Assembly: GCA_963784355.1 (NCBI GenBank) | Contig: CAWAQU010000006.1 | Location: forward strand, 14,517-78,516 | From: an uncultured bacterium | Lineage (GTDB): Bacteria; Patescibacteriota; JACMRA01 | Length of the DNA: 64,000 bases | Direction: 5' to 3' | Shown: positions 1,134-59,200 of the stretch, in pieces | How the letters are laid out: every line of letters starts with the position of its first letter | Position numbering within the stretch: position 1 is the first letter of the stretch | The notes under the pieces: model-generated | Told to the model about the DNA's origin: nothing | The model's database searches: none | What the model saw: the letters and a program-made list of their open reading frames with translations, nothing else | Program-made: the position numbers and the translations under genes

Positions 1134-1778
1134 ATGTCGAATCAACCACTATACGAGCCATTTGAGTTCGTTGAAATAGATGTACCTCAAGATTACCAGG
1201 GTGTAGTAATGCAAGAGCTCGGTAAAAGAAGTGCTGATATCCAAAATATTTCACCTAATGAGGCCGGAACCGAATTTCATTTTGAAGCTGTGATGCCTAC
1301 AAGAGCTTTAATTGGGCTTAAATCATTGCTTATTACTGCAACAAAAGGTACTGTTATAATGCACAGTATTTTTGATGGGTACAGACCAATGGTTAATTTA
1401 CAGATTAGTAGTGACCATGGAAGTTTGGTAAGTACTGAAACTGGTGTAACTTCAGGTTATTCACTGGATAATGCTCAGCAAAGAGGAGTTTTGTTTGTAG
1501 GACCTGCCGTTGAAGTTTACGCAGGAATGGTAATTGGTGAGTGTAGTAAAGACGAAGATTTGGAGATAAATCCTTGTAGAGAAAAGAAGTTGAGCAACGT
1601 TCGTTCAAAATCCTCTGACGATGCTATCATGTTAGCTCCTCCTCGCGAAGTAACGCTAGATACCTGTCTTGAGTATATTGGAGATGACGAATTGGTTGAA
1701 ATTACCCCAAAAAGTCTTAGAATCAGAAAAAAATATTTAGATCCAAACGATAGAAAGAGGTTTAAACATAAAATGTAA
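1134..1778 (+). CDS. typA: TypA/BipA C-terminal half only (domain V + CTD); G domain and domains II-III absent
   Basis: EPFE...PTRALIG...GVLFVGPAVEVYAGMVIGE...NPCREKKLSNVRS...DDELVEITPKSLRIRK; only 147 bp of non-coding DNA upstream. Confidence 0.9.
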   Translation: MSNQPLYEPFEFVEIDVPQDYQGVVMQELGKRSADIQNISPNEAGTEFHFEAVMPTRALIGLKSLLITATKGTVIMHSIFDGYRPMVNLQISSDHGSLVSTETGVTSGYSLDNAQQRGVLFVGPAVEVYAGMVIGECSKDEDLEINPCREKKLSNVRSKSSDDAIMLAPPREVTLDTCLEYIGDDELVEITPKSLRIRKKYLDPNDRKRFKHKM

Positions 1779-15766: not shown

Positions 15767-15778
15767 TTATACGAAGTC
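15767..15778 (-). repeat. dif-arm copy 1 (GACTTCGTATAA on minus strand)
   Basis: Exact 12-mer in the xth-pgi gap; minus strand reads ACTTCGTATAA-TAAAAA-TTATTAAAATT. Confidence 0.85.
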
Positions 15779-20884: not shown

Positions 20885-21382
20885 TTATCTTAATATCATT
20901 TTAATGCCTTTTTTATGTGAGTTTTCCGAGTTTAAATACTCAAATCCAAACTTCAAGTAAAATTTATCAGCAACAGTTGTTTCAAGAAAAATTGGTTTAT
21001 TCTGGATTTTATACTTTAGTATTGCATTCATTAAATTTTGCCCGATACTAATATTTTGCCAACTAGGGTGAACGAACATAGATTTTAACTCCATACTTTC
21101 TTCTTTATTAACTAAAAAAACACTTCCTACTGCTTCATTATTTATTTTGGCAACTAAAGCTAAACTTTGTTTTTTGGCTAAAATTTGTTTTAATTCAGTT
21201 AGCTTTTTTGACCAGTTTATATTATTTATTTGCTCTTCGGTAGCTTGGTATTCGTCATTAACATAATTTTTGATATAACAAAGCCTCTGAATTTCTACTA
21301 TCTGCTCAAGATCAGTAATATCTGCATTAGAAAAAGATAGGTTTTGCAGTAACAAGATTTTGTCTTCGGATAAAGAGTTCAT
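20885..21382 (-). CDS. GNAT family N-acetyltransferase
   Basis: MFVHPSWQNISIGQNLM acetyl-CoA motif, FYLKFGF. Confidence 0.82.
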   Translation of the reverse strand: MNSLSEDKILLLQNLSFSNADITDLEQIVEIQRLCYIKNYVNDEYQATEEQINNINWSKKLTELKQILAKKQSLALVAKINNEAVGSVFLVNKEESMELKSMFVHPSWQNISIGQNLMNAILKYKIQNKPIFLETTVADKFYLKFGFEYLNSENSHKKGIKMILR

Positions 21383-21421: not shown

Positions 21422-23438
21422 CTACTCCATCAATTTAAACTCTTCTGTTAATCTATCTACTTTGCTTTTTTTGCCGAATACTAAAACTCCTAAATAATTT
21501 AATTCAGTGGATTTTTTTGGTTCTTGTTTATCTCGAGCTTTTTCATCACTATTACTATCTCTCATTTCTTCAGTAAATACAGCTATTTTTAAACCCTCTT
21601 TTTCAGCAGCTCTTTTTAGCTCCAACAATTGCTCTCTAGAATCTGTTTGTTTGATAATAATTGTATGTTGAATATTCATTGGAATTTCCTCGCCATCCTG
21701 AGTCTCGAATCTATCTATACCTATAAGCCTATCTCCCTGCCTAGCTGCTAAAGAGGCAGCCAAATGAGCTGATGTAGCAAGTTTACTCCAAGTTGGTATT
21801 TCAGGGGTGTTTAAAAGGATGCTGTGAGCTACTAAAGTCTTACCGGGTTTTTCAGAATCATTGTCGCGACTTCTTGTGTGAGGAAATGTAACACACTCTT
21901 TTATATGCTTACCAAGTAAAAATGAAACCAATCTTTCACTCATTCCAAAACCTGCAAGTGGCGGAAGTCCATATTCTAGAGCTTTTACATAATCTTCATT
22001 CATAAACTGTGCCTCATCGTCACCTGCATCTCTAGCGGCTTGCTGCGCTTTAAATCTATCCAACTGGTCAATCGGATCATTTAACTCACTAAAACATTTG
22101 CCTAGTTCAGCGGTACCAGCTACAATTTGCCATCTGTGAACAAGCTTAGGATTTTCAGGATCTCGCTTAGCCAGTGGTTCTAATTCCACAGGTTGCTCAG
22201 CCAAAAATATTGGATTTTGAATATAAATTCTAGCGACTTTTTTATAGATTTTATCAATTAAATTACTCATTGAAGTGCCTTTTTCAATTTCAATTTTGTT
22301 TTCATTGGCTATCTCAAGCAATTCTTTATAAGTTTTATTTTCCAAATCTACTTTGTCACCGGAAAAATATCTAATTGCTTCAAAATATGGAATTACCGGC
22401 CAACCATTTACTAGTTTCCACCCATGTCTATCTGCTTCTTCCTGACTACACCAATTACCCCAATTTATACTTTTACCATTGTAATCAATTTGTTCATAAG
22501 TACCTAAAAATTCTTGTACTATACGTCTATAAATTCTTTGAATTAATGGCATTCCGTCAAAATAGTTGGCATAGGCCCAATAAAATTCGATTTGAGTATA
22601 TTCCTGAAGATGTTGAGGACTGTTACCTTCATTTCTAAAAATTCTGCCAATTTCAAAAACTTTTTCAAACCCACCGGCAATCAATTTTTTTAAAGGTAAT
22701 TCTAACGATATGCGTAAATAGACTTCTTGATTTAATTCATTATAATAGGTTGTAAATGGTTTTGCATCTGCTCCCCCCGGAATTGTTTCAAAAATAGGGC
22801 ATTCTACTTCCAAAAAACCTTCCTTAATCATTTCTTCGCGCCAAATCTGCCAGTATCTTGATTTAAGTTTAATTATATCACGGACGGATAAGCCGTTTTC
22901 ATCTTTGGTGTTCATTTTGAAATCTGCAACTTTATCCAAATACCTTGTCTCCACATTTTCATAATCTAATTGCTCAGGTAGGGGCCTAAGTGATTTAGTC
23001 AAAATTGTGTATTCCTCTACAAATAAACTAGGCTCGCCACGTTGAGAAAGGTCCAATTTGCCTGTTGCTTGAATATAGTCACCTTCATCAAATAAATCTT
23101 TATAATTTTCAAAACTTAACTTCTTTTCAGTATTATATTCTTGAGGTAAATCATCTTTTTTAAAAATGAATTGAAATCCCTCAGGTAGACTCTCATCCTC
23201 AATTGTGCCAAAAGCAATTTTACCGGACATTCTTTTAGATTTAACTCTTCCGGCCAATGTAACTTGCTGACCTTTGTTTTCCTCAAATTTTGATTTTATA
23301 TCATATAAGGTATAATCTCTTTTTAGAGTAGGGGGTAAAAGGATTTTGACCTAGATCTTCTAGTTTATACATTTTCTCAATACGAATTTGGCGTTGAGTT
23401 TCGACGGATGAATATGAAATACCTGCTTGTTGAGACAT
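21422..23438 (-). CDS. lysS: Class II lysyl-tRNA synthetase with C-terminal DUF2000/PTH2-like extension; single-base frameshift near 23320-23340
   Basis: GGADAKPF, YLRISLEL, FRNEG, GFGMSERL motifs; N-terminus MSQQAGISYSSVETQRQIRIEK from ATG 23438 joins the main frame after removing one base in the C5/A5 runs. Confidence 0.92.
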
Positions 23439-23462
23439 ATTGGAATGATATAGTTACCTAAT

Positions 23463-23489
23463 TAAAAAACAAACTCCCTGGAAGGGAGC
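23463..23489 (-). terminator. Attenuator terminator in lysS leader
   Basis: GCTCCC-TTCCA-GGGAGT-TTGTTTTTT on the minus strand between the leader ORF and lysS ATG. Confidence 0.8.
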
Positions 23490-23516
23490 ATAAAAATAAA
23501 TTAACCGAGCCCCCTT

Positions 23517-23567
23517 TTACTGAGAAGTTTTTTTAGAATTTTTCTTGGAGAAGACTACGAGTTTCAT
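23517..23567 (-). CDS. Putative lysS leader peptide MKLVVFSKKNSKKTSQ
   Basis: 16 codons, 5 Lys; ATG lies 7 nt after TATAAT of a TTGACA-N18-TATAAT promoter; followed by antiterminator and terminator. Confidence 0.72.
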   Translation of the reverse strand: MKLVVFSKKNSKKTSQ

Positions 23568-23574
23568 GACTACA

Positions 23575-23604
23575 ATTATAGGACGATTAAGATATAGCTG
23601 TCAA
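23575..23604 (-). promoter_or_regulatory. sigma70 promoter of the lysS leader
   Basis: Minus strand TTGACA-gctatatcttaatcgtcc-TATAAT. Confidence 0.8.
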
Positions 23605-23775
23605 GGATAGGGGATACTGCTATTAAAATTTACTATAAATAATTAATACGCATAAGATTTTACAGTCTTACAAACTTCAGCTATACTATCTCAGCACTAA
23701 ATAAAATACGAATATAAAAATATAAAGTAGCTTCTGTCACACAAAAGTACTATATTATTGAATAATCTATCCAAA

Positions 23776-28976: not shown

Positions 28977-29087
28977 AGGGTTGAATTTTAGTCATTTACT
29001 AGCTTTTGTCAAGTAAGCCTTATATCATATATGATATATTATTGTATTTTTGACATTAAAGGTACTAGCTGCAATTATATGATTATA

Positions 29088-29990
29088 ATGAACTATTATA
29101 TAGTTTTACCGAGTAAAAAGATACCGCAGCCCTATTTAACTTATAAGTATACTGAAGAGTTGGAAGTAGGTAGAATAATTGAAGTAAACGTTAGAAATGC
29201 TAGTGTGTGGGCTGTGGTACTAAAAAAAGTGGATGTAAGTAGCTTAAAATTTGATGAATCCAAAGTTAAAGAGATTGAAAATAAATTACCTGTAATATTG
29301 GGGGAGCAAAATATAAAATTTTTATATGCCTTTAGTCAAAATACTTTTAACACATTAAATACAGTTTTAAATTCATTTTTACAACCATTTAAATTATTAA
29401 CAAAAAAGCAATGGTCTGAACTTAGTTCGAAACAAGTGGAATTGGCTCAAAATACCCCCCCGGCTTCTGGAAGTGGTTTCAATGTATTATTTGATCTAAA
29501 TATATATACCACGTTACGTATAATATACATTATACGAAGTCATTTAAATACAACAAAAAAAAGAATACTACTAGTCTTCCCTGAAACAAAACACATCAAT
29601 CGATTTTTAGATGAACTTACTAATCAACAAGATTTTACTGAAATAAAGAAAAAGCTCGACATTTTTATATATACAGGCTCTCCGGATAAAGAATCAAAGA
29701 AAACTGTGTGGAGTATTTTAAATCAAAATTCTAAGACTACTATTATACTTTCAACTCGCAGCGGACTCTTTCTACCATTTAATAAGTTGGATGAAATAAT
29801 ATTAGTTGATGAAGCAAATTCATTTCATATTCAAGACCAAAATCAGATTTATTTTGATACGCGTGACGTTATTTACCTAATGGCCCAGAGTTTTCAGTCC
29901 AAATTGACCTTCTTAAGTACCCTACCCTCAATTAGGCTCTATAATTTCTATCAGAGCGAAGTTTTTACTCAGTTTAAGGAAAAGTATTGA
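29088..29990 (+). CDS. priA: PriA N-terminal part (3'-DNA-binding domain + degenerate helicase lobe)
   Basis: LTYKY..ELEVGRIIEV, LLVFPE, STRSGLFLPF..L..IILVDEA, YFDTRDV, FLSTLPS; no intact Walker A. Confidence 0.78.
   Translation: MNYYIVLPSKKIPQPYLTYKYTEELEVGRIIEVNVRNASVWAVVLKKVDVSSLKFDESKVKEIENKLPVILGEQNIKFLYAFSQNTFNTLNTVLNSFLQPFKLLTKKQWSELSSKQVELAQNTPPASGSGFNVLFDLNIYTTLRIIYIIRSHLNTTKKRILLVFPETKHINRFLDELTNQQDFTEIKKKLDIFIYTGSPDKESKKTVWSILNQNSKTTIILSTRSGLFLPFNKLDEIILVDEANSFHIQDQNQIYFDTRDVIYLMAQSFQSKLTFLSTLPSIRLYNFYQSEVFTQFKEKY
29513..29540. other. Chromosomal dif-like Xer recombination site embedded in priA
   Basis: GTTACGTATAA-TATACA-TTATACGAAGT (11-6-11); minus-strand spacer TGTATA equals the E. 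coli dif spacer; KOPS converge on it; G/C skew flips. Confidence 0.8.
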
Positions 29991-31030
29991 TGTCTCAAAA
30001 AAAAGCTTTATTTATACATTGTAGACGTGGACTTTATCAGCTAACCAAATGCAAAAGTTGTGGTCATAGTTTTTCTTGTGATAATTGTGATGCTAAACTG
30101 GTTACTTATAAAACAGGTGGTAGCAGTCTTGAACTTCTGTGTCACCAGTGCCAAACTTATTATAAGTATCCAAATCATTGTCCTAAGTGTAACTCAAAGG
30201 AAATATTTTCTAAATATGGTGGTATTGAAGAATTAGCGCAGTTATTGGAAAAAGAAGATTATAAACTTATTAGACTTGATCAATCAAAAAACTTCCCTAC
30301 AAATCATGCAAATGAAATAGAATCAAATATTGAGGGTAAAAATATACAAATTTCTTTTAGACAAAATAAAAATGACCTAGTAAGCCCACATTTAACCAGT
30401 AATTTAGAAGAATATGATATTTACCTACATACAAGAATATTTGACCCGCTTTTACCCTACTCTATTTTTGATAAAATAGTATTTGTACAAGCTGAGAATT
30501 TACTTGCTAGCCCTGATTATCTAGTAAGCGAAGAAATAATCAAAGCAACTGCTGAAATTTTACTTCAATGCAATACAACTAATGAAATCATATTTGATAC
30601 AAATGCCCCTGAATTGGAATTATTTGAAGAGTTAAAAAAACTCCACTACGAGTATCCTGAAAATCACAAGGTCTATGAGTGGTATTTAGAATTTTTGGAA
30701 AAAGAGAAATCAAACAGGCAAAAATACGGTTTTCCACCATTCAAGAATTTACTTTTGATTACTACTCAGGAAAAAGATATTCAAAGCTCCAATAAAAAAC
30801 TAGAAACAATTACTAATTATCTGGATAAGATGAGAGGTGAGTTACCTGAAGTAAGTTGGTCTACCCCCTACCCTGCGAGGTTTTTAAAACGAAAAAATAT
30901 GTATTCACATCACATTTTGCTACGTTTCCCGCGCCAATATGAACATTTCAATCTTTTAAGAAAGGAAATCGGAGAAATTGTAGAGTTATATAGAGTACAA
31001 GTAAGGCTTAACCCCAGACATTTGTTTTAG
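29990..31030 (+). CDS. priA: PriA C-terminal part (Cys-rich Zn region + CTD)
   Basis: RRG..CKSC..CDNC..CHQC..CPKC, GIEEL, R.KYGFPPF; ATG overlaps the upstream TGA (TGATG). Confidence 0.82.
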   Translation: MSQKKALFIHCRRGLYQLTKCKSCGHSFSCDNCDAKLVTYKTGGSSLELLCHQCQTYYKYPNHCPKCNSKEIFSKYGGIEELAQLLEKEDYKLIRLDQSKNFPTNHANEIESNIEGKNIQISFRQNKNDLVSPHLTSNLEEYDIYLHTRIFDPLLPYSIFDKIVFVQAENLLASPDYLVSEEIIKATAEILLQCNTTNEIIFDTNAPELELFEELKKLHYEYPENHKVYEWYLEFLEKEKSNRQKYGFPPFKNLLLITTQEKDIQSSNKKLETITNYLDKMRGELPEVSWSTPYPARFLKRKNMYSHHILLRFPRQYEHFNLLRKEIGEIVELYRVQVRLNPRHLF

Positions 31031-31099: not shown

Positions 31100-31111
31100 G
31101 ACTTCGTATAA
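31100..31111 (+). repeat. dif-arm copy 4
   Basis: GACTTCGTATAA-TGTATT, intergenic. Confidence 0.85.
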
Positions 31112-43037: not shown

Positions 43038-46000
43038 TTAGTTACCACCACCCGCTTGAGGAACCCAAGGATTTGTATTAACTCCATTATTAAATTGGAT
43101 TGACGGCCTTACTGGTTGCACTATTGGTGGTGGAGTTGTTGGTGCAATAGGCGTTACTACTTGCCCTGGTAATGACCCTGGAAGAGTTTCGGGAGTTCCA
43201 ATTCCGCTACCCACACCTACATCAGGTTTAACTATAACAGGTGTTTCAGGCACTACTACTTCGGGTACTTGTGGTTGTACTGGCACTGTTGGCTGTGTTG
43301 GAGTTACTGGTGGTTGCACTATTGGTGGTGGAGTTGTTGGTGCAATAGGCGTTACTACTTGCCCTGGTAATGACCCTGGAAGAGTTTCGGGAGTTCCAAT
43401 TCCGCTACCCACACCTACATCAGGTTTAACTATAACAGGTGTTTCAGGCACTACTACTTCGGGTACTTGTGGTTGTACTGGCACTGTTGGCTGTGTTGGA
43501 GTTACTGGTGGTTGCTCAATTACTGGAACTACATCAGGCTTTGGCACTACTACTTCTGCTGGAGTTGATGTTGGTACTGTTGGTGATTGAACATTACTTG
43601 TTGGTATATTTACCTCAGGTTTAACTGGAGCAGTAGGTATTGGCCCCTGTTGCCCTGTTGTTGCTGGAGTTGTTGTACCAGTTGAAACACCTTCATTAAC
43701 GTTCACACTTGGTTTTGGGGCTGGAGCAGTAGGTACCTCTACTCCATTACCTGTTGAACTTGGTTGTGTTGGTGATGTAGATCCTCCTTGATTTGGAGTT
43801 ACATTTTTAGGAGCCTCAGGCGTTGGCCCTTGATTTGGCTGTGATGTTGGAGTTGTTTCCGAAGTTGCATTACCTTGCTCCCTTTTAATTTCTTTTTTCA
43901 CTTCAGGTTGGCTATGACTAGGTGTAGCTACAAGTGAAATTCTGCTATTTCTTTGCTCAATTTCAGCTAAATGTACTTCTTTCACAGCTTTCAAAGCTTG
44001 ACATAGTGCCACATCCTGCAAATCGCTTTCTGTACTCATAGTTACTTCCATGTATCTGCTACTACCAATACTTAGGAATAATTTTCCTGTAAATAGACCT
44101 AGAATGCTTGATGATGATCCTTTTTTCAAGTTGAATGAAGTAATATCACTTCTAGCGAATCCTTCTATAATCATTTTAGCATTTTTAGTATCTCCGTTTG
44201 CAATCAAAACATTCAAGCCTTCAATTACATCATGCATAGTTACATTAGGTGCAACATTTCTATTGGGTATTCCTGCTAATTTTTGTTTTAGCTGCGCATC
44301 TGAAAGAGGTTTAAGATTTGTAATATCTTTTCCGTAAATTGAAATTACATTGTTTTTGAGTGCAGGGAAGCATGATTCAAACATTTTTTTAGCAGATTCA
44401 TGCAATTTTCCAAGTGATTCACCAGCTTCAACTGTATTATTTCCTTTTATTGAATCAACAGCTAATGCAGCTCCACTCGATTTAGTTTTCTGCTCATATT
44501 GAGGTACAGTAAGACATTCTGCTGCTGTGGCTACTACACTAATATTTCCTTTAAACTCAGGTTGATTGACTAAAGACAAATTGTTGCACCACAAAATTTC
44601 GAAAGAGTGGTCATTAAACATTCTAATCCTGGTATTACCATTTTTCAGCAATGTAGCCGTAACATCAAGTTTAGTATTGCTGTTATTTGAAACAACCTGG
44701 GTAATAACCTTATTTAATAAACCAGCCTCACTAACTGTGGTAATTTTACCTCCACCATTTGCAAATTTCTTTATTTCAGAAGCATTGAAATCTCCAGAGG
44801 ATTTTAAGTATGCTGCTGTAACAGCCTTGGGACTATGTCCGACTTTCTTAATCAAGCTTTGGATTTGTGCTTTATCATGATCTAATCCTTTCAATCTTCC
44901 TTCAGCTACAATTCCACCTGCCTGTTTTAGGTGTCCTCTAATTTCATCACTTAGATCATTTGTATGACCTGCCATTTGTTCTAGACTAGAACTTGCTCCA
45001 GTTACTATAACAGGATTACTTCCTGCTACACCCGTTCTTACACCTCTATTTCTTTCAGTTGAAATAATCAAAGCAGTGTTTTGAATAGCTTTAGCAACTT
45101 GAGCAGCTTCCTCAGCACTATTTATTGTAAAACTCTTACCATTTCCAAGATTGATAGTGTAATTAATTTTACCACTTTTATCACTTACTGCTTTAGTAAA
45201 CGCTGTAATAAATGACGCGCCATTAGCAGTTTCATTTTTAATTACTCCCGCCAATTTTGGATCAGTTTCAGCAGACTTATAAACAGCTATAGTTTGTAAA
45301 AAGTCATCTTTACTTTCCACTCTAATTCCACCTTTATCTTCACCGCTCCAACTAACAAAACCTCCATATTTTAAAAGTGGTACAACAATATGTAATAGTT
45401 CCGCTGCCCTTGGTAAGCCATATTTTACTTTGTAATCATTAGAAATTTCATTGTAAATTTTATTTAATCTGGCCACTTCTTGTGGATTATTTGGACTGAA
45501 ACCGATTTCACTATTAGTACTGCCTCTTTCATAAATTCCCCAAGGAGTAGGTATAATTATTCCTGAAGTACTAGCTTTTCTTACAAATTGTTCTTTACTC
45601 AAAGTCTCTTGCCCCTCTGCTTTCAATAATGCATTTAATTCAGAAAGGTTATTATTGAATTCTTTATCTGTAGCTGTACCTCTATTCCTGCTATATAAAT
45701 CACTGTAGCGGTATTGATTTGCCAGATCTAACGCTTCTTTAGCTTGCTCGCTAGTTAACTTATTATACTTTGCCATATGAGCTAAATCGTTTAATCTTCT
45801 AGGCATTCCTCTTGATTCAGAAAAATTACCTTCTCCAAACCCAGCAACAATTTTATTCATTCTACTTAGAGTCACATCCATAAACGCTGTCACTCCATCA
45901 GCACCCAACGCAGCTTGTGCAAGATTTATATCTCTGATATTTAGTCGGCCATTACTAGCAAGTATTCTATCACCTCCAGGTAACCAACGTAATCCAACAG

Positions 46001-49000
46001 CAATCTTAACAAATCTACTTTGAGCCGGAGTTAGTTGATTATATGAAATTTTACCATTACTAAAGTCTGCATAAGTACTTCTTAACGCATTTAGTAAAGC
46101 TCTGGTATCCATATCAGATTTTCCTTCTGCCCCAGCTGCCAAAATTCTAGTTACTGATACTAAATCTGTAGGTGGAACACCTATTTTTATAAACCTGTCC
46201 CTTAACTCCTTATCTGCAACAGTAGCTTTAAACCGACTAGCATCCAAGGCTTTTGATAGTGAAATTTCTTTACCGTCTTCACCAGTTATTCTCATGTTTT
46301 CAAGAGCAGCTAGCCCGTCTAATCCATTTGCGTTAGGATTTACACCTGGCTCAATTCTAGATCTTACTCTAGGATCATTAGGGTTTACATCTATAATCCT
46401 ATCTCTAACCTCATCTTCGGACAGACCCGTATTTATCATTTTAGATAAATTTTCTCTAGATAAAGCAATATCAGCTGAATGTTCACCATTGATATGTTCT
46501 CCGGCAATATAAAAATTTGCAATTTGTGAAGTATTACCAATTCTATAAGCCTTCTTAGTTACAGTATCAATATATACCAATTTAAATGTATATTTCTTTG
46601 TTTCTTGATTCCTATCCGCAACAAATCCAAGTGCAGTGTTGTTTTTATCAGCCTCACTAACAATCTGTACATCATTCAAACTTAATTCAGGACCTCTAGT
46701 AAGTGTATCAACTCCGGTAAAGGTAACTTTTACTAGTTCAATAACGTTGTTTCCGGATATTCTTGCATTAACATTTTTATTTAAAGTATTCTCCTTATCG
46801 GCTACATTAATAGCTTTGTTAGAATTTTCTAATTTGCTAGCTGAATTTTTTACATTGTTTAAGTCAGCCCTTGCAACTTTTAGTTGTTTTTGCAGTTCAT
46901 TACGTGTTTTAGGATTTTTTGTACCATCCAATTTCTTTTGCAAATCAGATATTTTAGATTCTAAAGGCTTAATTTTAGTATTATAGGACGCTGACTGTTT
47001 ATTTTGCTCCAAAACAATCTTATTATTAGCACTAGGTTTAGATATTACTTCTGCTTTATCAACTATCACTTCATTTCCGCCGTTAACAGCATTAATAACA
47101 CTTGAACCAGCTCCATTATTTTCATTGGTTTCTACACTTTGATTACTTACATTAACTTTAGTTACATTAGCTACGGCGTTTTCCGGATTTGGAATTTTCA
47201 ACCCTAGATTTTTATAAACTTCAGCAACTGGCATGTCTGTCCTTAAAGCATAAGCTTCGACTTTTGTTCTCAATTGAGTATCGGCATATGTTAGTTGATC
47301 AGCTATTCTTTGAACTTGCTTTTCATTAGCAACAAGCTGAGATTCAATCCTTCGTGCAATGGTTCTTCTAGTTTCTACACTTCCTTTATTATTAGCCCTA
47401 TATTGCTTTCTCAATTCCTCATTTTTTAGATATAATCTTCTGGATTCAGCTTCAAGTCTTCTTTTTTCTGCTAGTGTACCCTTAAACTCCGGTGTAACTT
47501 TATTTATATCAATATTATTTCTTTTAGCTTCAGTAGTGGACTGCTGTTGTAGTTCGTCATTTTGCTCATTTGAGTCTTCATTCCACCATACTGTCTTTGG
47601 GGAGTTTGGAGTTTTATTTGACTGTGCTACTACTTGAGGTTTCGGCTTGGGTTCAACTTTTTCAGCATTTACAGACACTGATTTAACCCATCCTAATTCT
47701 TGTTTAGCACTCTCACTTGGTCTATAAACTACATATTCTGCTTTTCCACCAACATTGAATGGTCTAACAAGCAGTTTTTCAGGATTACCCTTTACATATC
47801 TAACTAAGAACTCCTGCCCGTTTAATTTCACCGTTTCATCCTTTATACCTGTGATGAGCTGCGAAGCTTTAATAGTTGTCTTAGTTAACAAACCTCTCAT
47901 TAAATCATTGCTAAATCTAGCTTCTTGGATTTGTAAGTTATTATTTTCTGCAACAGGATTATTGCCATTATTTACATTTTGATTAGTAGGCTCCGGCTTT
48001 GCATCCACTGCTATATCCGGATAGGCATTTACAGCTACATTAGGATAAATCTTAGAATTTTTGTTTGCTTGAGCTTGTTGGTTAACTATAGTCGGTTTAT
48101 CCCAACCCAATGAAACTCTAGTATCTTTTGTTGGTTCATAAATCACTGACTTACTGTCACCACTGTCACCCCTTACAACAAATGTTCTAACAAGTACTTT
48201 TTCATTCGTGCCTTTAACATAGCCAACTTTAAAACTCTCCTCATTTACTGTTACAGACTGTATTTTTGTACCGTAGGTTATTTGTGAAGGAGTTAAATTA
48301 CTTTTATCAACCCAACGATCCATTGATTTATTAAATCTAGTTTCTTGAGCGGCCAGATCACTAATATTAAGATTAGCTATTTGTACTTGATTGGGCACTT
48401 GTACAGGCTTCGCGTCATTTTGATTTATAGCTTGAGTTTTAGACTCAACAGGACGTGCTGTAGGTTTAGTTACAGGTTTTGTTGGTTCAACATTAGGAGT
48501 TACTATAGGCTTTGGTTTACCTACATTTTGAGCTACAGCTTGACTATTATTTCTTTCAATAGCAACTAATAATTTTTGTCTTGCACCTTCAGAGATTGGG
48601 TTACCTTGTGAATTGATAAAGTATTTAAGTGATTCTTCACTAGGTACAACTACTTTTCCATCTTTTCTAATCAAATACCAAGCTTCTCCACTTTTTGATT
48701 TATAAATTGAAAATGGCTCTCCTCCATAGGTGATTTTAGTATTGGCACTAATCAAATTTGAACGAGATATTTTGGCAGACTCTAATTCAAGTACAGGCCT
48801 TAATGGAGCATTTTGAACTACTTCTGTTCTTGTTGGTTGTTTTGGCTTAGACTCAATTGGAGTTGGAGCTGCTGCTCTTGTTTGAGCTTCTTTAAGCGCT
48901 GATGCTGAACTTACAAGCTTACTTCTAATCTCTGCAGGTAAAGTTTGGAATCTTTGATCTTTTGATACCCTATCACTTACTACAAAAGCTTCATTATTTT

Positions 49001-52000
49001 TGTTGACTAAGTATAATCTATTTCCGTCTTTACTTACTCTAAAAGTGAATTCTAAATTACCAGCAAGCTTTATACCTTCAATTCCTCGATATGAGAAGGT
49101 TTTGGTGTCTCTTGCAATATTTATATTAGGAACTTTGGTTAGATCAGTTGGTGCAAGTATATTATTTAAGGGTAAAAAGTTGAGGTCAGAAGCACCCTTT
49201 ATATCAGGTATACTTTGATTTTGAGATATAGCTGCAATCTTTTCCTCTGTAGCATTTGAGTCGTTAAAACTTGCATTAGGTGTTAATTTACTAGTATCAG
49301 GTAAATTTCTACTACCCTGAGCATTGTTTACACTGGTAGGAGCTTCACTATGTTCTGCATGAGCAATTTTAGTAGTTTGCCCTGCCCAAGGATTAATAGG
49401 TTTAACAATATCATTTGTACTTACAGTTGTAGTTTGAGAGCCTTGAACTGTATTTAATACCTTATTCAAAGAACTTCGATAGTCACTTTCCCCATTAATT
49501 TTTCTAGCACTAGCAATATCAAGCTTTGTACCTATAATTTTATTATCACCGGTAGCAGTTAACGAGTATACAGATCCTGATTTATCAGTAAACACTGTAC
49601 CTGAATTTCCTCTTCCTGTGCTTAAATCACCATTTTTACCTAGAATATTGTGTATTTCAACTCCACTTAAAGATTTTATCCCGTCACTAGTATTAAATAC
49701 ATATAAACCTTGTCCTAAGCTTTTCGCCGGAGAAAGATTTGTTTTGATTGCTTTTGATTCTAGATTAGATTTTATGATATTAAAGTCACCTACACCCAAA
49801 TTAGTACCTTTTGGTACTGCCACCAATAATTCACCACCAATTGTATAGACATCGTTATTTGTATTAAGCTTACCATATTCTTTTACATCGTGACCGGCAA
49901 AGCTAATAGCTTCAATTTTTTTACCCGAAGTTGAAGTAAAATCAACATTGTAAGTACGAGATGATAATCCAAACACTCCTCTGAGTGAAGCTGCCATGTC
50001 TGCTCCAACTGATTTTCCGTTAAATTCGATCTTTTGTAAATTTTTCTCAGCTACAGTTGCCACACTATACATCCCTTCATGAACAGCTTTACCAGCCTCA
50101 GTTTTCATTGCAAACTCCCCACCAAATTTTACGGCTCCAATTACTCCATTCATCAATCTACCTTGAGCATATATAGAACCACTATTTAATAAAGCTTTTG
50201 CAGCTATATCCTTCGCATAATCACCATCGGTTAGTAATCTTTTTATTCCAGCTGGACTTATAAACCTTCTATTTTTTTCATGCGCGTTAATTGATTCCTG
50301 TAATTCGGCATCACTCGCAACTTCTTCATTTCCTTCCAATAAAGCTTCCAGTCTGGCTGCCATCCTAATTGCATCAGTTCTACTAGTAGGCTGATTTACT
50401 TGAGCTTCAGCATTAAACCTCTCCATGAAATCTTTTCCGAAATGGCTACTTGCAATTGCAGTTGCCTGGTACAATTGTTGAGCATCCACACCTACTTTTG
50501 AATTCATAGTTGTATAACCCAAAAGTTCGCTTGTAATACCTTTCCAGTAATTTTTATATTTATTATTTTGGGCATCTACAGCTTCTTTAAGACCGGCAGC
50601 TAATAATTGACTTACATAAGCCTCGGATTTCCCCTGTGCTATAGCAGCATTAATCAAATTCGGTAAACCCATTTCCTGATCCTGAGTCAAAAAAGTACCT
50701 GCCAAAATTCCCGTTGAAGCTGGAATCCATGAGGTATATGGATTAAACATGGCTCTTGATACAACTCTACTCATACCTTTCAACAAAGCTCTAGGATAAA
50801 ACTTCCATTTACCATTTTTATCTTTTCCGACAAAATTATAAACACCTCTAGCGTCACCGGCAGTATTCGTTATACCAATACCCTCATATCCTTCAACCTG
50901 AGTATTTTGCAATGTTTCTATGTGCTGATCCAGCTTGCCTGCTTTTTTAGCAAACGAAGTGATTTTATACTGCCCCCTTATAAAGTCAAAAGCTTTGTTA
51001 AATATACCTATAAGCTCTGCAAGTGACTTATATTTTTCAATGTCTTTAAATCCACCCTGAGCAAAACTGTTTAAATCTTTTTCAAATCCCATTCTAGTTA
51101 CACTAGCCAATTGAGTTAAACCTCTGAATAGAGCAGTATTTTCCTTATTTTTTTGTCCTGAAAGTTGTTTACATAAATTTACTAAAGCATTTTTAGCTAA
51201 CTCATTTTTGTCCTCCAAAACTGAACTATTTACAACAGCCTCTAGTCCGGTCATTTTCTTACCATCGACATCTAGCTCTACAAACTTGCTATCTGGACTT
51301 ATAATAGCTTTCCAAGTTTCAGTGATATCAGTACCTGAAAGCATTCCCGGTAGTTTTAGCTTAAACCTATCAGCAATAAACCTTTGACCCCAACCCAAGC
51401 CTCTACTCAAGACGCTTTTGCCTTTCTCTGTATAATCTGTTGTATCTTTAGTTAAATTAATACCAAAAGTACCTGTTAGTACATTGGCTAAAGCACTAAT
51501 CGAATCCTCATTACTTAAAGCTGTAATAGTTTCTTTTCTATCTTTTTGAATATTATTATCTACTTCCAATTCTCTAGTGTATTCTTCTACTCTATATCGC
51601 CTTATATATTCAAGCTTAAAAGCAGATTTTGATAGATTAGCAGCTAAAGCAGATTGAGGATATTTTTTTTCATTATTAATATCGGCTGGAATCAATTCAA
51701 AATATGATGTCAAATCTAAATTTCTCCTTAAAAATCTTTTAAAATCAGAATACTTTGAAGACGCAAGCAATTTAACAATTAATTCATCATTGATTTCTAA
51801 GCTACCGTTACTTTTCTCCTCAGGTGTCAAAGTTTTGCTTATAAATTCTTCAAATGACTTTAGTTTAGAGTTTTTACTTCCCTCTTCTTTACTTAAACCC
51901 TCAACAATAGAATTTGTCATTGGATCTGACTTTCTAAAAAATGGAACTATATTATTTTTTGAAGCTAGATTATCTTGCTTACCCCTATTAAACGGTACTA

Positions 52001-52073
52001 TGTTATTCGCTGCATGCTGATTTTTCAATAGGTCTTTATTAGAGCTTTTAGATTTTGATTCAAGTGTAAACAT
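43038..52073 (-). CDS. Giant 3011-aa hypothetical protein with internal repeats and Pro/Thr/Val-rich C-terminus
   Basis: Uninterrupted 9-kb ORF; no signal peptide seen. Confidence 0.88.
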   Translation of the reverse strand: MFTLESKSKSSNKDLLKNQHAANNIVPFNRGKQDNLASKNNIVPFFRKSDPMTNSIVEGLSKEEGSKNSKLKSFEEFISKTLTPEEKSNGSLEINDELIVKLLASSKYSDFKRFLRRNLDLTSYFELIPADINNEKKYPQSALAANLSKSAFKLEYIRRYRVEEYTRELEVDNNIQKDRKETITALSNEDSISALANVLTGTFGINLTKDTTDYTEKGKSVLSRGLGWGQRFIADRFKLKLPGMLSGTDITETWKAIISPDSKFVELDVDGKKMTGLEAVVNSSVLEDKNELAKNALVNLCKQLSGQKNKENTALFRGLTQLASVTRMGFEKDLNSFAQGGFKDIEKYKSLAELIGIFNKAFDFIRGQYKITSFAKKAGKLDQHIETLQNTQVEGYEGIGITNTAGDARGVYNFVGKDKNGKWKFYPRALLKGMSRVVSRAMFNPYTSWIPASTGILAGTFLTQDQEMGLPNLINAAIAQGKSEAYVSQLLAAGLKEAVDAQNNKYKNYWKGITSELLGYTTMNSKVGVDAQQLYQATAIASSHFGKDFMERFNAEAQVNQPTSRTDAIRMAARLEALLEGNEEVASDAELQESINAHEKNRRFISPAGIKRLLTDGDYAKDIAAKALLNSGSIYAQGRLMNGVIGAVKFGGEFAMKTEAGKAVHEGMYSVATVAEKNLQKIEFNGKSVGADMAASLRGVFGLSSRTYNVDFTSTSGKKIEAISFAGHDVKEYGKLNTNNDVYTIGGELLVAVPKGTNLGVGDFNIIKSNLESKAIKTNLSPAKSLGQGLYVFNTSDGIKSLSGVEIHNILGKNGDLSTGRGNSGTVFTDKSGSVYSLTATGDNKIIGTKLDIASARKINGESDYRSSLNKVLNTVQGSQTTTVSTNDIVKPINPWAGQTTKIAHAEHSEAPTSVNNAQGSRNLPDTSKLTPNASFNDSNATEEKIAAISQNQSIPDIKGASDLNFLPLNNILAPTDLTKVPNINIARDTKTFSYRGIEGIKLAGNLEFTFRVSKDGNRLYLVNKNNEAFVVSDRVSKDQRFQTLPAEIRSKLVSSASALKEAQTRAAAPTPIESKPKQPTRTEVVQNAPLRPVLELESAKISRSNLISANTKITYGGEPFSIYKSKSGEAWYLIRKDGKVVVPSEESLKYFINSQGNPISEGARQKLLVAIERNNSQAVAQNVGKPKPIVTPNVEPTKPVTKPTARPVESKTQAINQNDAKPVQVPNQVQIANLNISDLAAQETRFNKSMDRWVDKSNLTPSQITYGTKIQSVTVNEESFKVGYVKGTNEKVLVRTFVVRGDSGDSKSVIYEPTKDTRVSLGWDKPTIVNQQAQANKNSKIYPNVAVNAYPDIAVDAKPEPTNQNVNNGNNPVAENNNLQIQEARFSNDLMRGLLTKTTIKASQLITGIKDETVKLNGQEFLVRYVKGNPEKLLVRPFNVGGKAEYVVYRPSESAKQELGWVKSVSVNAEKVEPKPKPQVVAQSNKTPNSPKTVWWNEDSNEQNDELQQQSTTEAKRNNIDINKVTPEFKGTLAEKRRLEAESRRLYLKNEELRKQYRANNKGSVETRRTIARRIESQLVANEKQVQRIADQLTYADTQLRTKVEAYALRTDMPVAEVYKNLGLKIPNPENAVANVTKVNVSNQSVETNENNGAGSSVINAVNGGNEVIVDKAEVISKPSANNKIVLEQNKQSASYNTKIKPLESKISDLQKKLDGTKNPKTRNELQKQLKVARADLNNVKNSASKLENSNKAINVADKENTLNKNVNARISGNNVIELVKVTFTGVDTLTRGPELSLNDVQIVSEADKNNTALGFVADRNQETKKYTFKLVYIDTVTKKAYRIGNTSQIANFYIAGEHINGEHSADIALSRENLSKMINTGLSEDEVRDRIIDVNPNDPRVRSRIEPGVNPNANGLDGLAALENMRITGEDGKEISLSKALDASRFKATVADKELRDRFIKIGVPPTDLVSVTRILAAGAEGKSDMDTRALLNALRSTYADFSNGKISYNQLTPAQSRFVKIAVGLRWLPGGDRILASNGRLNIRDINLAQAALGADGVTAFMDVTLSRMNKIVAGFGEGNFSESRGMPRRLNDLAHMAKYNKLTSEQAKEALDLANQYRYSDLYSRNRGTATDKEFNNNLSELNALLKAEGQETLSKEQFVRKASTSGIIIPTPWGIYERGSTNSEIGFSPNNPQEVARLNKIYNEISNDYKVKYGLPRAAELLHIVVPLLKYGGFVSWSGEDKGGIRVESKDDFLQTIAVYKSAETDPKLAGVIKNETANGASFITAFTKAVSDKSGKINYTINLGNGKSFTINSAEEAAQVAKAIQNTALIISTERNRGVRTGVAGSNPVIVTGASSSLEQMAGHTNDLSDEIRGHLKQAGGIVAEGRLKGLDHDKAQIQSLIKKVGHSPKAVTAAYLKSSGDFNASEIKKFANGGGKITTVSEAGLLNKVITQVVSNNSNTKLDVTATLLKNGNTRIRMFNDHSFEILWCNNLSLVNQPEFKGNISVVATAAECLTVPQYEQKTKSSGAALAVDSIKGNNTVEAGESLGKLHESAKKMFESCFPALKNNVISIYGKDITNLKPLSDAQLKQKLAGIPNRNVAPNVTMHDVIEGLNVLIANGDTKNAKMIIEGFARSDITSFNLKKGSSSSILGLFTGKLFLSIGSSRYMEVTMSTESDLQDVALCQALKAVKEVHLAEIEQRNSRISLVATPSHSQPEVKKEIKREQGNATSETTPTSQPNQGPTPEAPKNVTPNQGGSTSPTQPSSTGNGVEVPTAPAPKPSVNVNEGVSTGTTTPATTGQQGPIPTAPVKPEVNIPTSNVQSPTVPTSTPAEVVVPKPDVVPVIEQPPVTPTQPTVPVQPQVPEVVVPETPVIVKPDVGVGSGIGTPETLPGSLPGQVVTPIAPTTPPPIVQPPVTPTQPTVPVQPQVPEVVVPETPVIVKPDVGVGSGIGTPETLPGSLPGQVVTPIAPTTPPPIVQPVRPSIQFNNGVNTNPWVPQAGGGN
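43113..43515. repeat. Exact 198-bp tandem duplication (66 aa x2)
   Basis: tggttgcact recurs at 43113 and 43311 with identical sequence in between. Confidence 0.92.
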
Positions 52074-53222: not shown

Positions 53223-56200
53223 ATGCCTATAGAGCAAGCTACAAATAAAAATCTTGGCCAAAATCATCCCAAGCCAATCAAACCTTTTATTAGACCAAAC
53301 CAAAATATGACAGAAAAACATAACCTTAGTAATTCTTCAATTGAGAGATCTTTAAGGAATATTCAAGAGGTTCAAAATCTACCTGAAAAAGAATCACTAG
53401 AAAACCGTCTTAAACGACTGAAGACTAATTGGACTGAGACAGAATTAAACTGGCTTGAAAACAAGGTACCTACAAATTTACAACCTTGGTTAGAACTACA
53501 GATGGACAATTTAAACAATTTTTTGTCAGGTCTGGACCAAATTGATTCAGTAACTTCCAGTATTAAAAATATACAAGAGGATTACGCTAAAAATGGCCTG
53601 GCTGGAATGGGGGCTGGGAAATTATTTGGTAATGCTGGGAAACTAGCACTTAGTGGGGCCCAAATCTTAAAAAACAAGATAACCGGTGGTGGTGGTACTA
53701 AAACCAGTTTTGATAGATACAAACAAATTTTGAGTAAAGTTAGAGATTCTAAAAAGGGAATCAGTTTTAATGAGTTTATAACACTAAGGCAACAATTACT
53801 TAACTCCACTTTAAATGAAATAAAAGATCCTCAAAAAAGAGAAAAATTAGAGAGCTTCATGGTTGAGGATGAAACAAATATTGCCTTGATGGCAAAAAGA
53901 GTTGCTCTGGAAGGTAATTCATCAGATACAAAAATTAGTGCCGGAATCAAAGCTAATATTGCCTCAGCCAATAAAGAAATGCTTCGTACAAATATGGTTT
54001 TGGGTGCTGCAACTGTCGGAGCTACTGCCCTATTTGGACCTGTAGGTTCAGCTTTAGCTATTTCAGTAAGAACCAAGTTTAGATTAGGTCAAAATTTTGA
54101 GAGAGATGTAAATTATAATCTGGCAAAAAACCAAGAAGAGATTCTGAAAAAAGTAAGCCAAGATTTTGTAAATGTACTTTACAGCCCAGACTTCGCTTCA
54201 GTATTTACTGACTTAAATGATGGCCAAGAAATATTACAATCCGATTATGACACACTATACTCTACATTGTTGGAAGCTAATGCAATTGACGGCTTGTCTA
54301 ACGAAATTCAAGAGCAAACTGTAGATTATTTAATAACTCTAAGAAAAGCAAAGAAGGAAGGAAAAATTACTAATAGTCAAAACAATCAGACAAATGCTTT
54401 AAAAGAAAGGGTGACTAAAGTAAGAGGGTTAGTAAACGTAATCAAGGAAAGTGCTAAAGAAGTAAAAATTGCAACTAACAGAAAAGTTGCAGAAGCTCAA
54501 GCTAGAAGTGGAGGAGTTGTAGAAATTAAAGATAGTAATGGTAATATTTTAGAAACTAAAAAAGTTGAAGGAGCTAAAAAAGTTGCTTTCGGAAAAGAAA
54601 TCATGGGTCAAAGAAGTTTTAGATTTTTACAGGCAGCCTTAGCAGCGGCCGGATTGGGATTTGCAGCAAATAAAATCATGCATACTGATGATATTTTACA
54701 AGGACCACTCTTGAAGGCACTTGGAAATACTGTACAAAAAGCGGATTATCAACATTTCAACGGAGCAATGAGAAGCTTTTTAGTAGAACATGACATTGTA
54801 GAATCAGGTAAAGTGAATAAATTTAATATCCGTGGTATCGAAGGAGCGATTGTAAGTCCTCATGATACAGATGGCTTAAACGAAATGGTGCAAAAAGGCT
54901 ATGTTGTGGATGTGGACCATTCAAACGAAGCTAGAACTGTGCTTATCAAAGCTGGACAACGCCTGGAATCACAAATAAACCCTGACCAATTCATTACAAG
55001 TGGTATAAAAGTACAATTTGACCCGGAAAAAATGACAGCTACTCGCGATGGTTTGCTTAAAATGAAAATTCCTCAAGATCAACTAAGTAAAAACTATGTA
55101 GAAATGAATTTAGGTGGTCAAAGTCGTGTATTTGGATCAGGACACTCTAATGAAGTAATTTCAATCAATGGTGAAAAATATTATTTAGTAGGTAAAAATA
55201 ATGGAGAAGTAGTTTTTGCTAAATCCGGAGCTAATGTGCCTGAACAAATGGATGAATTATGGGCTAATACGCCTAAACCTCCTGGGCCTCAAGAACTTGA
55301 GTTGCCTGATTATCTTGAAGGGATAACAAAAAAATATGCTGAAGATGGGCTAATCAAACCTGAAGAAAATAGCAAAATCATTGCTGAGCTGAATAAAAAA
55401 TTAGATGAACTTGTTTCTCAGCAAAAGACTTATAACTCTATAGAACAAAAAAAAGTCACCGGTCTTATAAAAACGCTTCAAAAATTTAAAAATCAGAATT
55501 TACTTATTGAAGATAAAAGACTATACATTTCTACTAACAACAATCCAATTAACTTTAGATTTAGTGCTAAAGCTTATCAAGGATTCAACGGATTAAATAA
55601 CCAGATAAGTGACGGAAAAATCAATAAAGCTGAAGCAATAGAAATATTGAACATACTTAAAGCCGAGCAGAATTCATGGAGATTTGAAAATAAGACCTTC
55701 CCGTTAGAATTACTGAAAAAGCAGTTGCAAGAATTAAAGCCCAACGAATACATATTACTTTCAAATAAACCAGACAGCTTCTCAATAAATGGTTCTGCAA
55801 AATTTGAATTAAATGGTGATATTTATATACAGAAAGTCAAGCAAGTAGATATTAATGGCAATGATATAGGAGTAAATATACCAAGCAAGACTCCTATTGG
55901 TATACAACCAGCACAAGCGGCTACAGCACAAACTCCTCAAGGTACAAACGCAATACAAGCACCAAAACCAGTTGCAGCTAATCCGGCAAACGCAGTGGCT
56001 CAAGTGACAACACCTACAGGGGCTACACCACAAAGCACAGAAGTAGATATGGCTGGAGCTAGTGATAATGGAAGAAATAGTGGTTGGGGCGGCTTTAAAA
56101 GAATTGACGATGCCAGAAAAGAGGTTGGAGCTAATGCACCACAATCAAAAGTAATGAGTAAATTTTTGCAACTACAAATAGAAGCAGGTTCGGGTAATAA

Positions 56201-59200
56201 ACTTAAGCTTAGCGATGAACGAGCAAGCAAGATTCTAGATGTAATGATTGCAGAATATAAAAAAACTGATTCTACAATAACGAAAGAGAAATTTTCCCAG
56301 TTATTTAATCAAGGGCAAATAAAAAGATCTAAGGAGATGGGAGATGCAATCGAAGCTGAATTAAATAAAATTTTTCCAGGAAAAAATGGTAAAGGTCTAG
56401 TATTTAATAGAATGACTGCTGATGCTATTAGACAAGGTGAAAATGATTGGGCTGGTAGAAAGATAACTGAACCACAATATACGACTTACGTTAATGAAAC
56501 TAGAACAAATCTAGGTTATAATACTCCTGAAAATCAAGCAAATGGAGTAATACCATCTACTGAAGAAGATAAGTTTGCCCCTCCTAGCGATCAGAGTATA
56601 CAAAGCCTAGGCAATTTTCCAGGAATGAAAAGTGTTGGTGAGATGGCAGAAGCAATGAAAAAATTTGCAAATGAATACCCTATTGTGGCAATACCTATAG
56701 GTACCGCTGTTTTGATTTATGCACGACAAATACCAGGATTATTTGCTAAAGATTTTAACCAAAGAAAAATGTTTAATCCAGGAGAAGCGAAAATTTCTTA
56801 TGGAATTAGAAGGGCAATAGATGCTGTAGGTGTTGTCGGATTAGCAGTTGCAGCTGGATGGCCAGCAGGCTTTGCTTTTGCTTTTGCTACTGCTTATGAT
56901 GCATGGCTTAAGCAGGGCAACATACAAAATAAATTTCTTGTATTACCAAAGATAGGTGAGCCAAGTAAATACAAAAATGCCAATGACGCCACAAATGAAA
57001 TGATGAAAGCAAGTGAGGACATAAAAAATTTAAGCAAAGATGCTACAATTGAATCCTTTGTAAATAATATAAAAGCTCTACATGGAAAATCCCAGGCTGT
57101 TTTGGGTATAGAGGAAAATAATACAGAAGCAATATTACAAGCTGAAATGGCAGATAAATTGTTTATTGATATAATTACTAACGCTAAAGGTATTCACAAT
57201 GATCCAAAAATTTTAGAGTTAATTGAATACTATAATAACGACCGTATAGGTAAGATTAAAAATAAGAAATTAGAAGAAAAAGTGAAAGAGTCAATTAGCA
57301 AATTTGAAAAGAAAATTGCAGAGGGCATTAGAACAGAGATTTTAAGCCATACAGGTGAGCCGGTATTAAAAGACCTAAGTGATGGCAATCTATTAATTCC
57401 AGATCAAGTTAGGGCAATAAATGATGCGCTTGGTAAAGCAGAAATTAAAAAACCCGAGTATAAAGAATTTGTAAATAAAGTGATAGCCAGGCTTGCAGCT
57501 GAAGAACTTGAAAGTACATTTAAAGCTAGTGGTGAATCATTACCTAACCCAGAAGTTTTGAATGACCCATTAGAAAGGTTAAACAGTGCTCTTAACACAA
57601 TACCTGAGTCAGACGGCAAAAAACTTTATGCAGATTATGTCAAAGACTTTGATGAAAGAATTAAATTAATTTTAGGGGTTAGTGATACTCTAACCGAATG
57701 GGACAATATAGAACACAAGACACCTAGTGCAGCTGCTTTTAGGACAAGTATAATGGCACTTTTAGCAGGAGAAGTACCAATTACAATAAAGGAAACCGGG
57801 CCTATTGAATTCAAAGAAAATCAAATACTTTATAATAAAAAAACTGGTATTGAATATTTTATAGAAAAGATAGAAGGGGACAATATTACACTTAAACAAA
57901 GAGGTACTGAAAATATTTTACAAGGTTCAAAAGCTGATTTACTCGAAACAATAGAAGGGGAGCTTTATCAATTAATAGAAATAGATCCTAAAGAAGGAAA
58001 AGTATATGAGCATATAAATAAAGAAAGTGGTACTATAGAAGGACAACTAAAAATTACTAAAGTAGAGACTATAGATAATAAAACTATGGTAACCTACGAT
58101 TATTACAAAGATGGAATAAATTTAGGACCCACAAATAGATCTATAACTGAACTTGATGCGTGGCTCAAAAATGGCTCAATGCAACTTAAAACTGATCCAG
58201 ATTCTAGCCCAGATGATATTGTTGAGGAAGAAAGCAGCACTGAAACTCTGAAATTGGATATTGGAGATATATATCAAATGAAATTTAATGATACACTAGT
58301 ACCAATGGAAATAGTCAAAATTTATGAAGGTACTGGCTCTGTAGGATACAAAATGTTAACTGACACTGAAGGAAAAACTCACACATTAACAAGGGAGCAG
58401 TTTGAAAATTTAGTGAAGGGTGGTAGTTTTGAATTCGTGAAAAAAGGCGAAGCACCTAAAGCAAAAGAAGAGCCAATTGAAGCTAAATTTGAAATAGATG
58501 CTATATGGACAAGAAAAGGTGACAATGGAAAGATAAAAGTAATTGGTGTAAGAGGAGATGGTATAAGTCAAATTATAGACTATGAAGCAATTGATAATAG
58601 TCATATAAGAGGTAGCTTGCAAAAAGATGACCTTGAGAAAAATTACATTTACGATAACTCAGAAAACAATGTATCAGAAATAGAATATTCTAAATACATA
58701 AAGCTAGATCCTGCTCTTGAAGCCAAACCAGAGGTCATAGCATTAAAAGATCAACTTATAAAAAATCTTGTGAAAGCTGAAACTAAAGTGGGAGGTAAAA
58801 ACTTTGTTCAGTTCCTAACCGAGAGTAAAGATGATTATCTTGTACAAAAATGGCTAAATCCAGCCATACCATATATTTATTTCTTTAGTGCTGCAATCAA
58901 AAACATTATTTCTGGAACAGCAGCTCTAGAATCACTTGTTAGAGCATCAGAAAAATTTGATACATTGCAACCTTTTGATGAATTCAAAAAAGATTTTATA
59001 GAAACTAAAATGGGTGAGATAGAAGCAAATATAAAATCAGATATTAAGAATACTCTTGAAGCTGAAAATTTATTTGATGGTGCGAAATATACTCTAGAAG
59101 GATCTACAGGTATAAATAAAGATATTGCAGAATCTAAATATTATAACTCTATTCCTGAAGCAGAGCGAGAGAGCTTTATTAAAAATATAGGGTTGGCAAA

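Follow-up and report, generated by a model that had tools for sequence, protein, structure and literature searches.

Leader-peptide attenuation has already been reported for several aminoacyl-tRNA synthetase genes, namely pheST, trpS, leuS and cysS. In E. coli, pheST is controlled through a terminator and an antiterminator by pheM, a leader peptide in which the cognate amino acid is abundant (RF01859). Attenuators that combine tandem cognate codons with a terminator have been predicted for trpS and leuS in Streptomyces, as the accessible text of that study describes them (PMC1262725). In Rhodobacterales, the predicted uORF attenuator uORFC-8-2 lies before cysS and, in the available portion of its description, likewise joins tandem cognate codons to an intrinsic terminator (PMC8632094). 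Leaderless short ORFs are part of other known systems. In S. meliloti, the trpL/rnTrpL RNA is about 110 nt long, carries a leaderless short ORF and forms protector, antiterminator and terminator stems (PMC6614838, PMC10117765, in the sections available), and in mycobacteria leaderless polycysteine sORFs are described, in the part of the preprint at hand, as sensing charged tRNA (10.1101/834739). Tandem Lys codons (AAG-AAA) occur in a regulatory uORF of B. subtilis, the one that encodes the MTKKNII leader peptide of abrB, according to the accessible text (PMC13733827). For lysyl-tRNA synthetase (LysRS) itself, the available part of one survey gives tRNA-responsive control in 4 species in 891 genomes, always by a T-box, and calls it puzzlingly rare; transcription of these T-box genes (B. 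cereus lysK and those of three species) responds to the charging of tRNA-Lys (PMC2916919).

Neither a leader-peptide attenuator of lysS nor any attenuator in Patescibacteria was among the results listed by full-text searches of largely open-access literature. An earlier sequence-only reading of the DNA discussed here had been aware of no described lysS attenuator of this kind, especially in CPR. The terms lysS, lysyl and LysRS are absent from the supplements of PMC8632094 and PMC6429828, and no lysS attenuator is described in the accessible parts of PMC4833913, PMC13236596, PMC13402693, 10.1101/834739, PMC5314783 and PMC6429828. The DNA is a single stretch of 64,000 nucleotides (the window), to which all coordinates refer. 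From this one sequence and from folding models, the region upstream of lysS is read, with moderate confidence, as a ribosome-mediated transcription attenuator that would sense charged tRNA-Lys and control lysS.

The elements of this unit, their order and their potential to pair are directly visible, and all of them lie on the minus strand. The gene lysS (21422..23438, with its ATG at 23438) encodes a class II lysyl-tRNA synthetase with a C-terminal DUF2000 domain according to Pfam, and the best NCBIfam matches of its product are lysine--tRNA ligase models, below their curated cut-offs. The C-terminal DUF2000 fusion (21422-21800) is common to most of the 119 LysRS relatives. A GNAT acetyltransferase gene (20885..21382) begins 40 nt downstream of lysS and, given this spacing, is probably co-transcribed with it. 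The sequence-only reading had listed a promoter, an ORF, a strand directly after its stop codon, a terminator and lysS, and every one of these was found where it had placed them. A protector hairpin, a helix that sequesters the 3' arm of the terminator, a frameshift in lysS and a candidate lysS promoter (P2) are additions of the present analysis. The host is taken to be a member of a deep Patescibacteria lineage. A guess at a CPR host had been made before, and the labels of the relatives fit it: the closest LysRS relatives are 70-73% identical (65-73% over the closest full-length ones, P0002-P0018), and the three that carry organism names are labelled Patescibacteria group, SR1 and Abawacabacteria. 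For RpoB, a protein labelled 'Patescibacteria group bacterium' shows 85% identity, and a match further away is labelled Thermales.

The unit begins with P1 (23575..23604), a sigma-70-type promoter TTGACA-N18-TATAAT that matches the consensus at 12 of 12 positions (-35 TTGACA at 23604-23599; 18-nt spacer; -10 TATAAT at 23580-23575). It is the sole 12/12 match on both strands of the window, where sites scoring at least 11 number three. Judged by this spacing, transcription would start at about 23568-23567, and the ATG of the leader ORF is at 23567, 7 nt downstream of the -10 box. An ATG 5-8 nt past the -10 box was observed at 5 of the 13 intergenic promoters scoring at least 10/12, against a background of 291 among 6686 intergenic positions (4.4%). 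Four of these five promoter-adjoining ATGs open ORFs of at least 100 codons, and the fifth opens the leader ORF. Leaderless gene starts are frequent in the window as a whole, and just one start in 37 has an SD-like word in front of it. Together, these figures indicate that a promoter followed directly by an ATG is a normal gene start here. Since the leader ATG has the position used by leaderless genes, translation of the 16-codon ORF is probable. The other synthetase gene considered, aspS, is without an analogous leader and directly follows a rhomboid protease gene.

The leader ORF (23517..23567) reads MKLVVFSKKNSKKTSQ and ends at a TAA stop codon (23519-23517). Lys is encoded at codons 2, 8, 9, 12 and 13 (AAA, AAG-AAA, AAA-AAA), which gives 5 of 15 residues and two KK pairs. 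In the 27 proteins of the window Lys makes up 8.4% of residues, and the binomial probability of at least 5 in 15 is 0.006. None of the 27 genes starts as Lys-rich as the leader ORF, and two KK pairs are present in 16 of 3271 open intergenic frames. At least five Lys codons also appear in 3887 of 9673 stop-free shuffles that keep the leader ORF's own dinucleotides (40%), which is not above chance. The two other frames also read 3-4 Lys, and the Lys codons sit within two A-runs. By eye, a period of 12 nt can be made out in the 3' half of the ORF (23549-23514, minus strand: S-K-K-N, S-K-K-T, S-Q-stop), which would suggest a duplication of the KK pair.

Segment 2, the antiterminator strand AAGGGGGC (23509..23516), begins at the first base past the stop codon. 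The claim that it can pair fully with the 5' arm of the terminator was borne out: the AAGGGGGC:GCUCCCUU duplex with 23489-23482 has 8 bp and -13.5 kcal/mol. A duplex at least as stable turned up in 46 of 5000 dinucleotide-shuffled leaders and in 21 of 3280 real stretches of 75 nt. The predicted fold lengthens this antiterminator by an outer helix between AACUUCU (23523..23529, codons 13-15) and the 3' arm of the terminator. Segment 1, the predicted protector strand (23549..23563, codons 2-7), would pair with 23515-23503 in untranslated RNA. The resulting hairpin has 13 bp with bulges, three G-U pairs and -9.8 kcal/mol, and 33 of 200 shuffles fold as well. Directly 3' of this 1:2 hairpin, a U-rich spacer (23490..23504) is a candidate pause site for RNA polymerase. 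Segments 3 and 4 form the intrinsic terminator with its U tract (23464..23489), which consists of the hairpin GCTCCCTTCCAGGGAGT (23489-23473) followed by TTGTTTTTT, where the U tract is broken by one G. The terminator stem, at about -9.4 to -9.8 kcal/mol, is weaker than the terminators of five E. coli attenuators (-13 to -26), and it is more stable than all 200 of its shuffles (0/200 as good; z -3.0). At the four other terminators found in the window, the upstream competitors are weaker (-1.5 to -9.5 versus -13.5 kcal/mol).

The effect of a ribosome on this fold was modelled at equilibrium, by keeping the RNA unpaired as far as 13 nt beyond the A site, and also 11 and 15 nt. With the 13-nt footprint, the probability of the terminator is at most 0.15 while the A site is on any of codons 2-13. 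It is 0.17 on T14 and rises to 1.00 on S15, on Q16 and on the stop codon. In this model the antiterminator zone covers codons 2-14, both KK pairs included, and the terminator zone covers codons 15-17. The change-over falls just past the last Lys codon and is shifted by at most one codon with the other two footprints. The folding model, in silico and at all three footprints, thus agrees with the earlier proposal that a ribosome at the stop codon hides the antiterminator and one at the Lys codons frees it. When the equilibrium fold was applied to five E. coli attenuators, all read as terminated in every state. It is therefore not a validated predictor, and a co-transcriptional version, in which the transcript is folded before the 3' arm of the terminator exists, was used instead. 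In this version four of the five controls, pheM, trpL, thrL and leuL, showed sequestration along the control codons and release once the ribosome was at the stop; hisL was not recovered. The lysS leader resembles these four at both places, with a predicted sequestration of 1.00 through T14 and then 0.80, 0.25 and 0.21. Without a ribosome, the 5' arm of the lysS leader is fully sequestered in the co-transcriptional fold, versus 0.00-0.70 in the E. coli controls. The equilibrium fold of untranslated RNA gives a terminator probability of 0.95 at the hairpin end and 0.27 with the U tract included. The protector is the least secure part of the model, because this ribosome-free state is unlike that of the E. 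coli controls. Among 2588 dinucleotide shuffles of the leader with the ATG and the terminator fixed, any switch was seen in 39; in 7 a KK pair fell within the antiterminating zone, and 3 satisfied all criteria, which were set after the sequence had been seen.

In the proposed mechanism, the transcript made from P1 would begin with the AUG. A 70S ribosome would initiate on the leaderless ORF, with transcription and translation presumably coupled, and RNA polymerase would probably pause in the U-rich spacer that follows the 1:2 hairpin. With ample Lys-tRNA, the modelled ribosome would reach codons 15-17 and cover AAGGGGGC, the 3:4 hairpin would form, and a transcript of about 100 nt would be released. 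When Lys-tRNA is short, the ribosome would wait at K8-K9 or K12-K13, covering segment 1 and not segment 2. The free segment 2 would then pair with the 5' arm of the terminator, and the polymerase would read into lysS and the GNAT gene. Untranslated RNA may form the 1:2 hairpin and terminate, depending on the model.

What the ribosome would respond to is open to another reading. A translation-coupled attenuator might sense a general slowing, an arrest early in elongation or the slow decoding of AAG by an under-modified tRNA-Lys(UUU). The antiterminating zone spans all of codons 2-14, so any stall there would suffice in the model, and the Lys codons of the leader cannot be separated from its A-runs, nor Lys enrichment from A-richness, in a single sequence. 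The first pair, AAG-AAA, is also the pair found in the abrB leader peptide of B. subtilis, as given in the accessible text (PMC13733827). Lysine is nevertheless favoured as the signal, since the gene downstream is the cognate synthetase and K12-K13 lie at the edge of the antiterminating zone, where the co-transcriptional fold also places the control codons of trpL and thrL; no residue but Lys stands in tandem twice. From the downstream gene and the positions of the KK pairs we infer that lysine is sensed, and the general stall sensor is considered unlikely. It is less likely still that the ORF is an accident of A-rich sequence in front of a constitutive, leaky terminator or of a switch made of RNA only or controlled by a protein. 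Such an accident would fit the fold of the whole 96-nt leader, which is not above chance (23 of 200 shuffles as good; z -1.27), the near balance of the naked RNA between two folds, and the 1326 of 2588 fixed-ATG shuffles that give an ORF of at least six codons ending before the terminator. It fits poorly with an ATG at the start position of real genes and a stop codon that abuts segment 2. As for RNA-only switches, Rfam found no T-box and no lysine riboswitch in 23400-23720 up to E 10, where its seven sub-threshold matches are not meaningful, and in the whole window only a tRNA-Cys reached the gathering score. Among the Rfam leader families (Phe, Trp, Thr, His, Leu), the best match was Phe_leader, at 17.4 bits versus a gathering score of 55 (E 1.8), and it was driven by the terminator.

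There are two further readings. The locus could consist of two independent units: from P1 would come a stand-alone transcript of about 100 nt, a small RNA or the mRNA of a small peptide, that ends at the terminator, and lysS would be transcribed as a leaderless gene from P2. This candidate promoter (23445..23472, minus strand), TTGTTT-N16-TATCAT, overlaps the U tract, and 6 nt separate its TATCAT from the lysS ATG, as is usual for leaderless genes in this genome; a -10-like box is seen by eye near the ATG of several distant CPR lysS genes, and for a synthetase gene a promoter as strong as P1 is unusual. The -10 box of P2 matches at 5/6 positions and its -35 box at only 3/6, and a -10 box that good is found at 6% of intergenic positions. 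Two separate units would leave unexplained an 8-bp competitor of the terminator that begins exactly at the stop codon, and the supposed small RNA has no Rfam family match. On balance this arrangement seems improbable. P2 could also supply basal transcription alongside an attenuator. The leader ORF could also be an N-terminal extension of LysRS that was broken off, or some other product of a sequencing error. Its ATG and that of lysS share one frame at a distance of 129 nt, Lys-rich N-terminal extensions exist in some relatives (P0017, P0057), and the contig has indels. A terminator with its U tract lies between the two ATGs, though, and the four closest relatives start at, or a few residues from, the position of 23438. 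Two in-frame stops led to the rejection of a broken extension, and the reading as a whole, other sequencing errors included, is held to be very improbable.

Sequencing errors do affect the contig. The frame of lysS changes at an A5 run (23324-23320, minus strand), where tblastn aligns four relatives in two frames, and a one-base homopolymer indel is the probable cause. In the incoming frame the site reads TCT-AAA-AAG, a tandem Lys pair. A +1 slip there would restore the frame, and instead of an error the change could thus represent another step at which Lys is sensed. The four closest relatives are continuous, the N-terminal block is in one ORF in 94 of the 119 LysRS relatives, and a second one-base homopolymer break lies 3.2 kb away. 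A programmed frameshift is unlikely for these reasons, and a second sensing step is held to be very improbable. The other break is in a DUF11 surface-protein gene (17683-, plus strand), at a C5 run near 20120, with a PRTGG motif and a membrane anchor in the other frame; it is a probable second homopolymer error. With at least two such frameshifts in the contig, the homopolymer runs within the leader (A5, A7, A4, G5) may be affected too. By frame inspection, the loss of one base from either A-run would make the ORF read on as ...KKLLSKRGLG to a stop at 23504-23502. A ribosome at that stop would still hide segment 2, and by this reasoning the attenuator model does not depend on the exact run length.

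A genome scan with the LysRS alignment used patterns common to many LysRS and listed 80 loci of 598 stretches. Among these 80, a single locus (L001, 59% identity) is a member of this LysRS clade; its LysRS is N-terminally truncated, and its upstream region has no terminator. The unit of promoter, short ORF and terminator was not seen in the upstream DNA of the 35 of 80 listed loci that were viewed. The architecture was also surveyed in the window and in the 17 of the 80 listed loci titled CPR or 'bacterium' (644,020 bases, both strands), and the combination of promoter, leaderless short ORF and terminator was found only here. Sixteen of these 17 loci are distant (37-44%), too distant to count for or against conservation. 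A GreA-like gene lies just upstream of lysS in 11 of the 17. No close relative was found in collections of plasmids and phages, where the best matches listed have 35-39% identity and all records are below 60%. A pattern test set apart a LysRS subclade, 15 of the 119 relatives, that shares a new N-terminus without the first part of the anticodon-binding domain (L001:807 onward; P0067-P0070, P0076, P0079, P0081, P0083, P0087, P0103, P0105, P0109, P0111, P0114, P0118). This N-terminally short group is possibly a split LysRS, and some of its members have AlaRS-type domains.

Other features of the window were recorded along the way. The 12-mer TTATACGAAGTC has six exact copies, at 15767, 25004 and 29530 on the plus strand and at 31100, 31560 and 40369 on the minus strand, where 0.22 copies are expected even allowing one mismatch. 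Five are intergenic and one is inside a priA-like ORF. The 12-mer resembles one arm of a loxP-kind tyrosine-recombinase site, and it could alternatively be an operator or an uptake sequence. The priA-like gene (29031-31030, plus strand) consists of two ORFs that overlap at TTGATG (29987-29992), by a natural split or an error. Only the C-terminal 214 residues of BipA/TypA are present, as a stand-alone ORF (1134-1778, plus strand). Two ORFs are very large (43038-52073, minus strand, 3011 residues; 53223-59765, plus strand, 2180 residues).

Patescibacteria are usually thought to be poor in regulation. If the lysS leader works as proposed, it would show regulation at the RNA level and the coupling of transcription to translation in this group, and lysine, an amino acid with abundant codons, would join the set that attenuators can sense. 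The unit takes only 130 nt and would offer a template for the search of such genomes: a promoter, an ATG at +1, cognate codons and a terminator. A broader view can be held only tentatively, and falls a little short of what we would call probable: that a leaderless Lys-codon attenuator, the first for lysS, has been kept across a deep Patescibacteria lineage, whose reduced, host-dependent cells would couple transcription and translation to meter the synthetase.

Set beside the described systems, the lysS leader shares parts with each and departs from each. T-box control of LysRS relies on direct binding of the tRNA, without translation, and no T-box match was found at the lysS leader. With the abrB leader peptide, it is the translation of a transcription regulator that is controlled, and the signal is the U34 modification of tRNA-Lys; a terminator switch is not described in the accessible part of that report (PMC13733827). 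In the mycobacterial polycysteine sORFs, the effect is on translation of the next gene, with no intrinsic terminator route in the portion of the preprint available (10.1101/834739). The trpL leader of S. meliloti senses Trp, controls the biosynthetic gene trpE(G) and belongs to the Alphaproteobacteria, as the sections available describe it (PMC6614838, PMC10117765). The predicted synthetase attenuators of Streptomyces respond to other amino acids and are backed by conservation across genomes (PMC1262725, accessible text), as is the Cys system uORFC-8-2, with 145 examples in the part of the source at hand (PMC8632094); the lysS leader is known from one genome. Compared with E. coli pheM-pheST, the lysS leader has Lys instead of Phe, a weaker terminator, a leaderless start and no family match, and it is similar in its modelled release profile.
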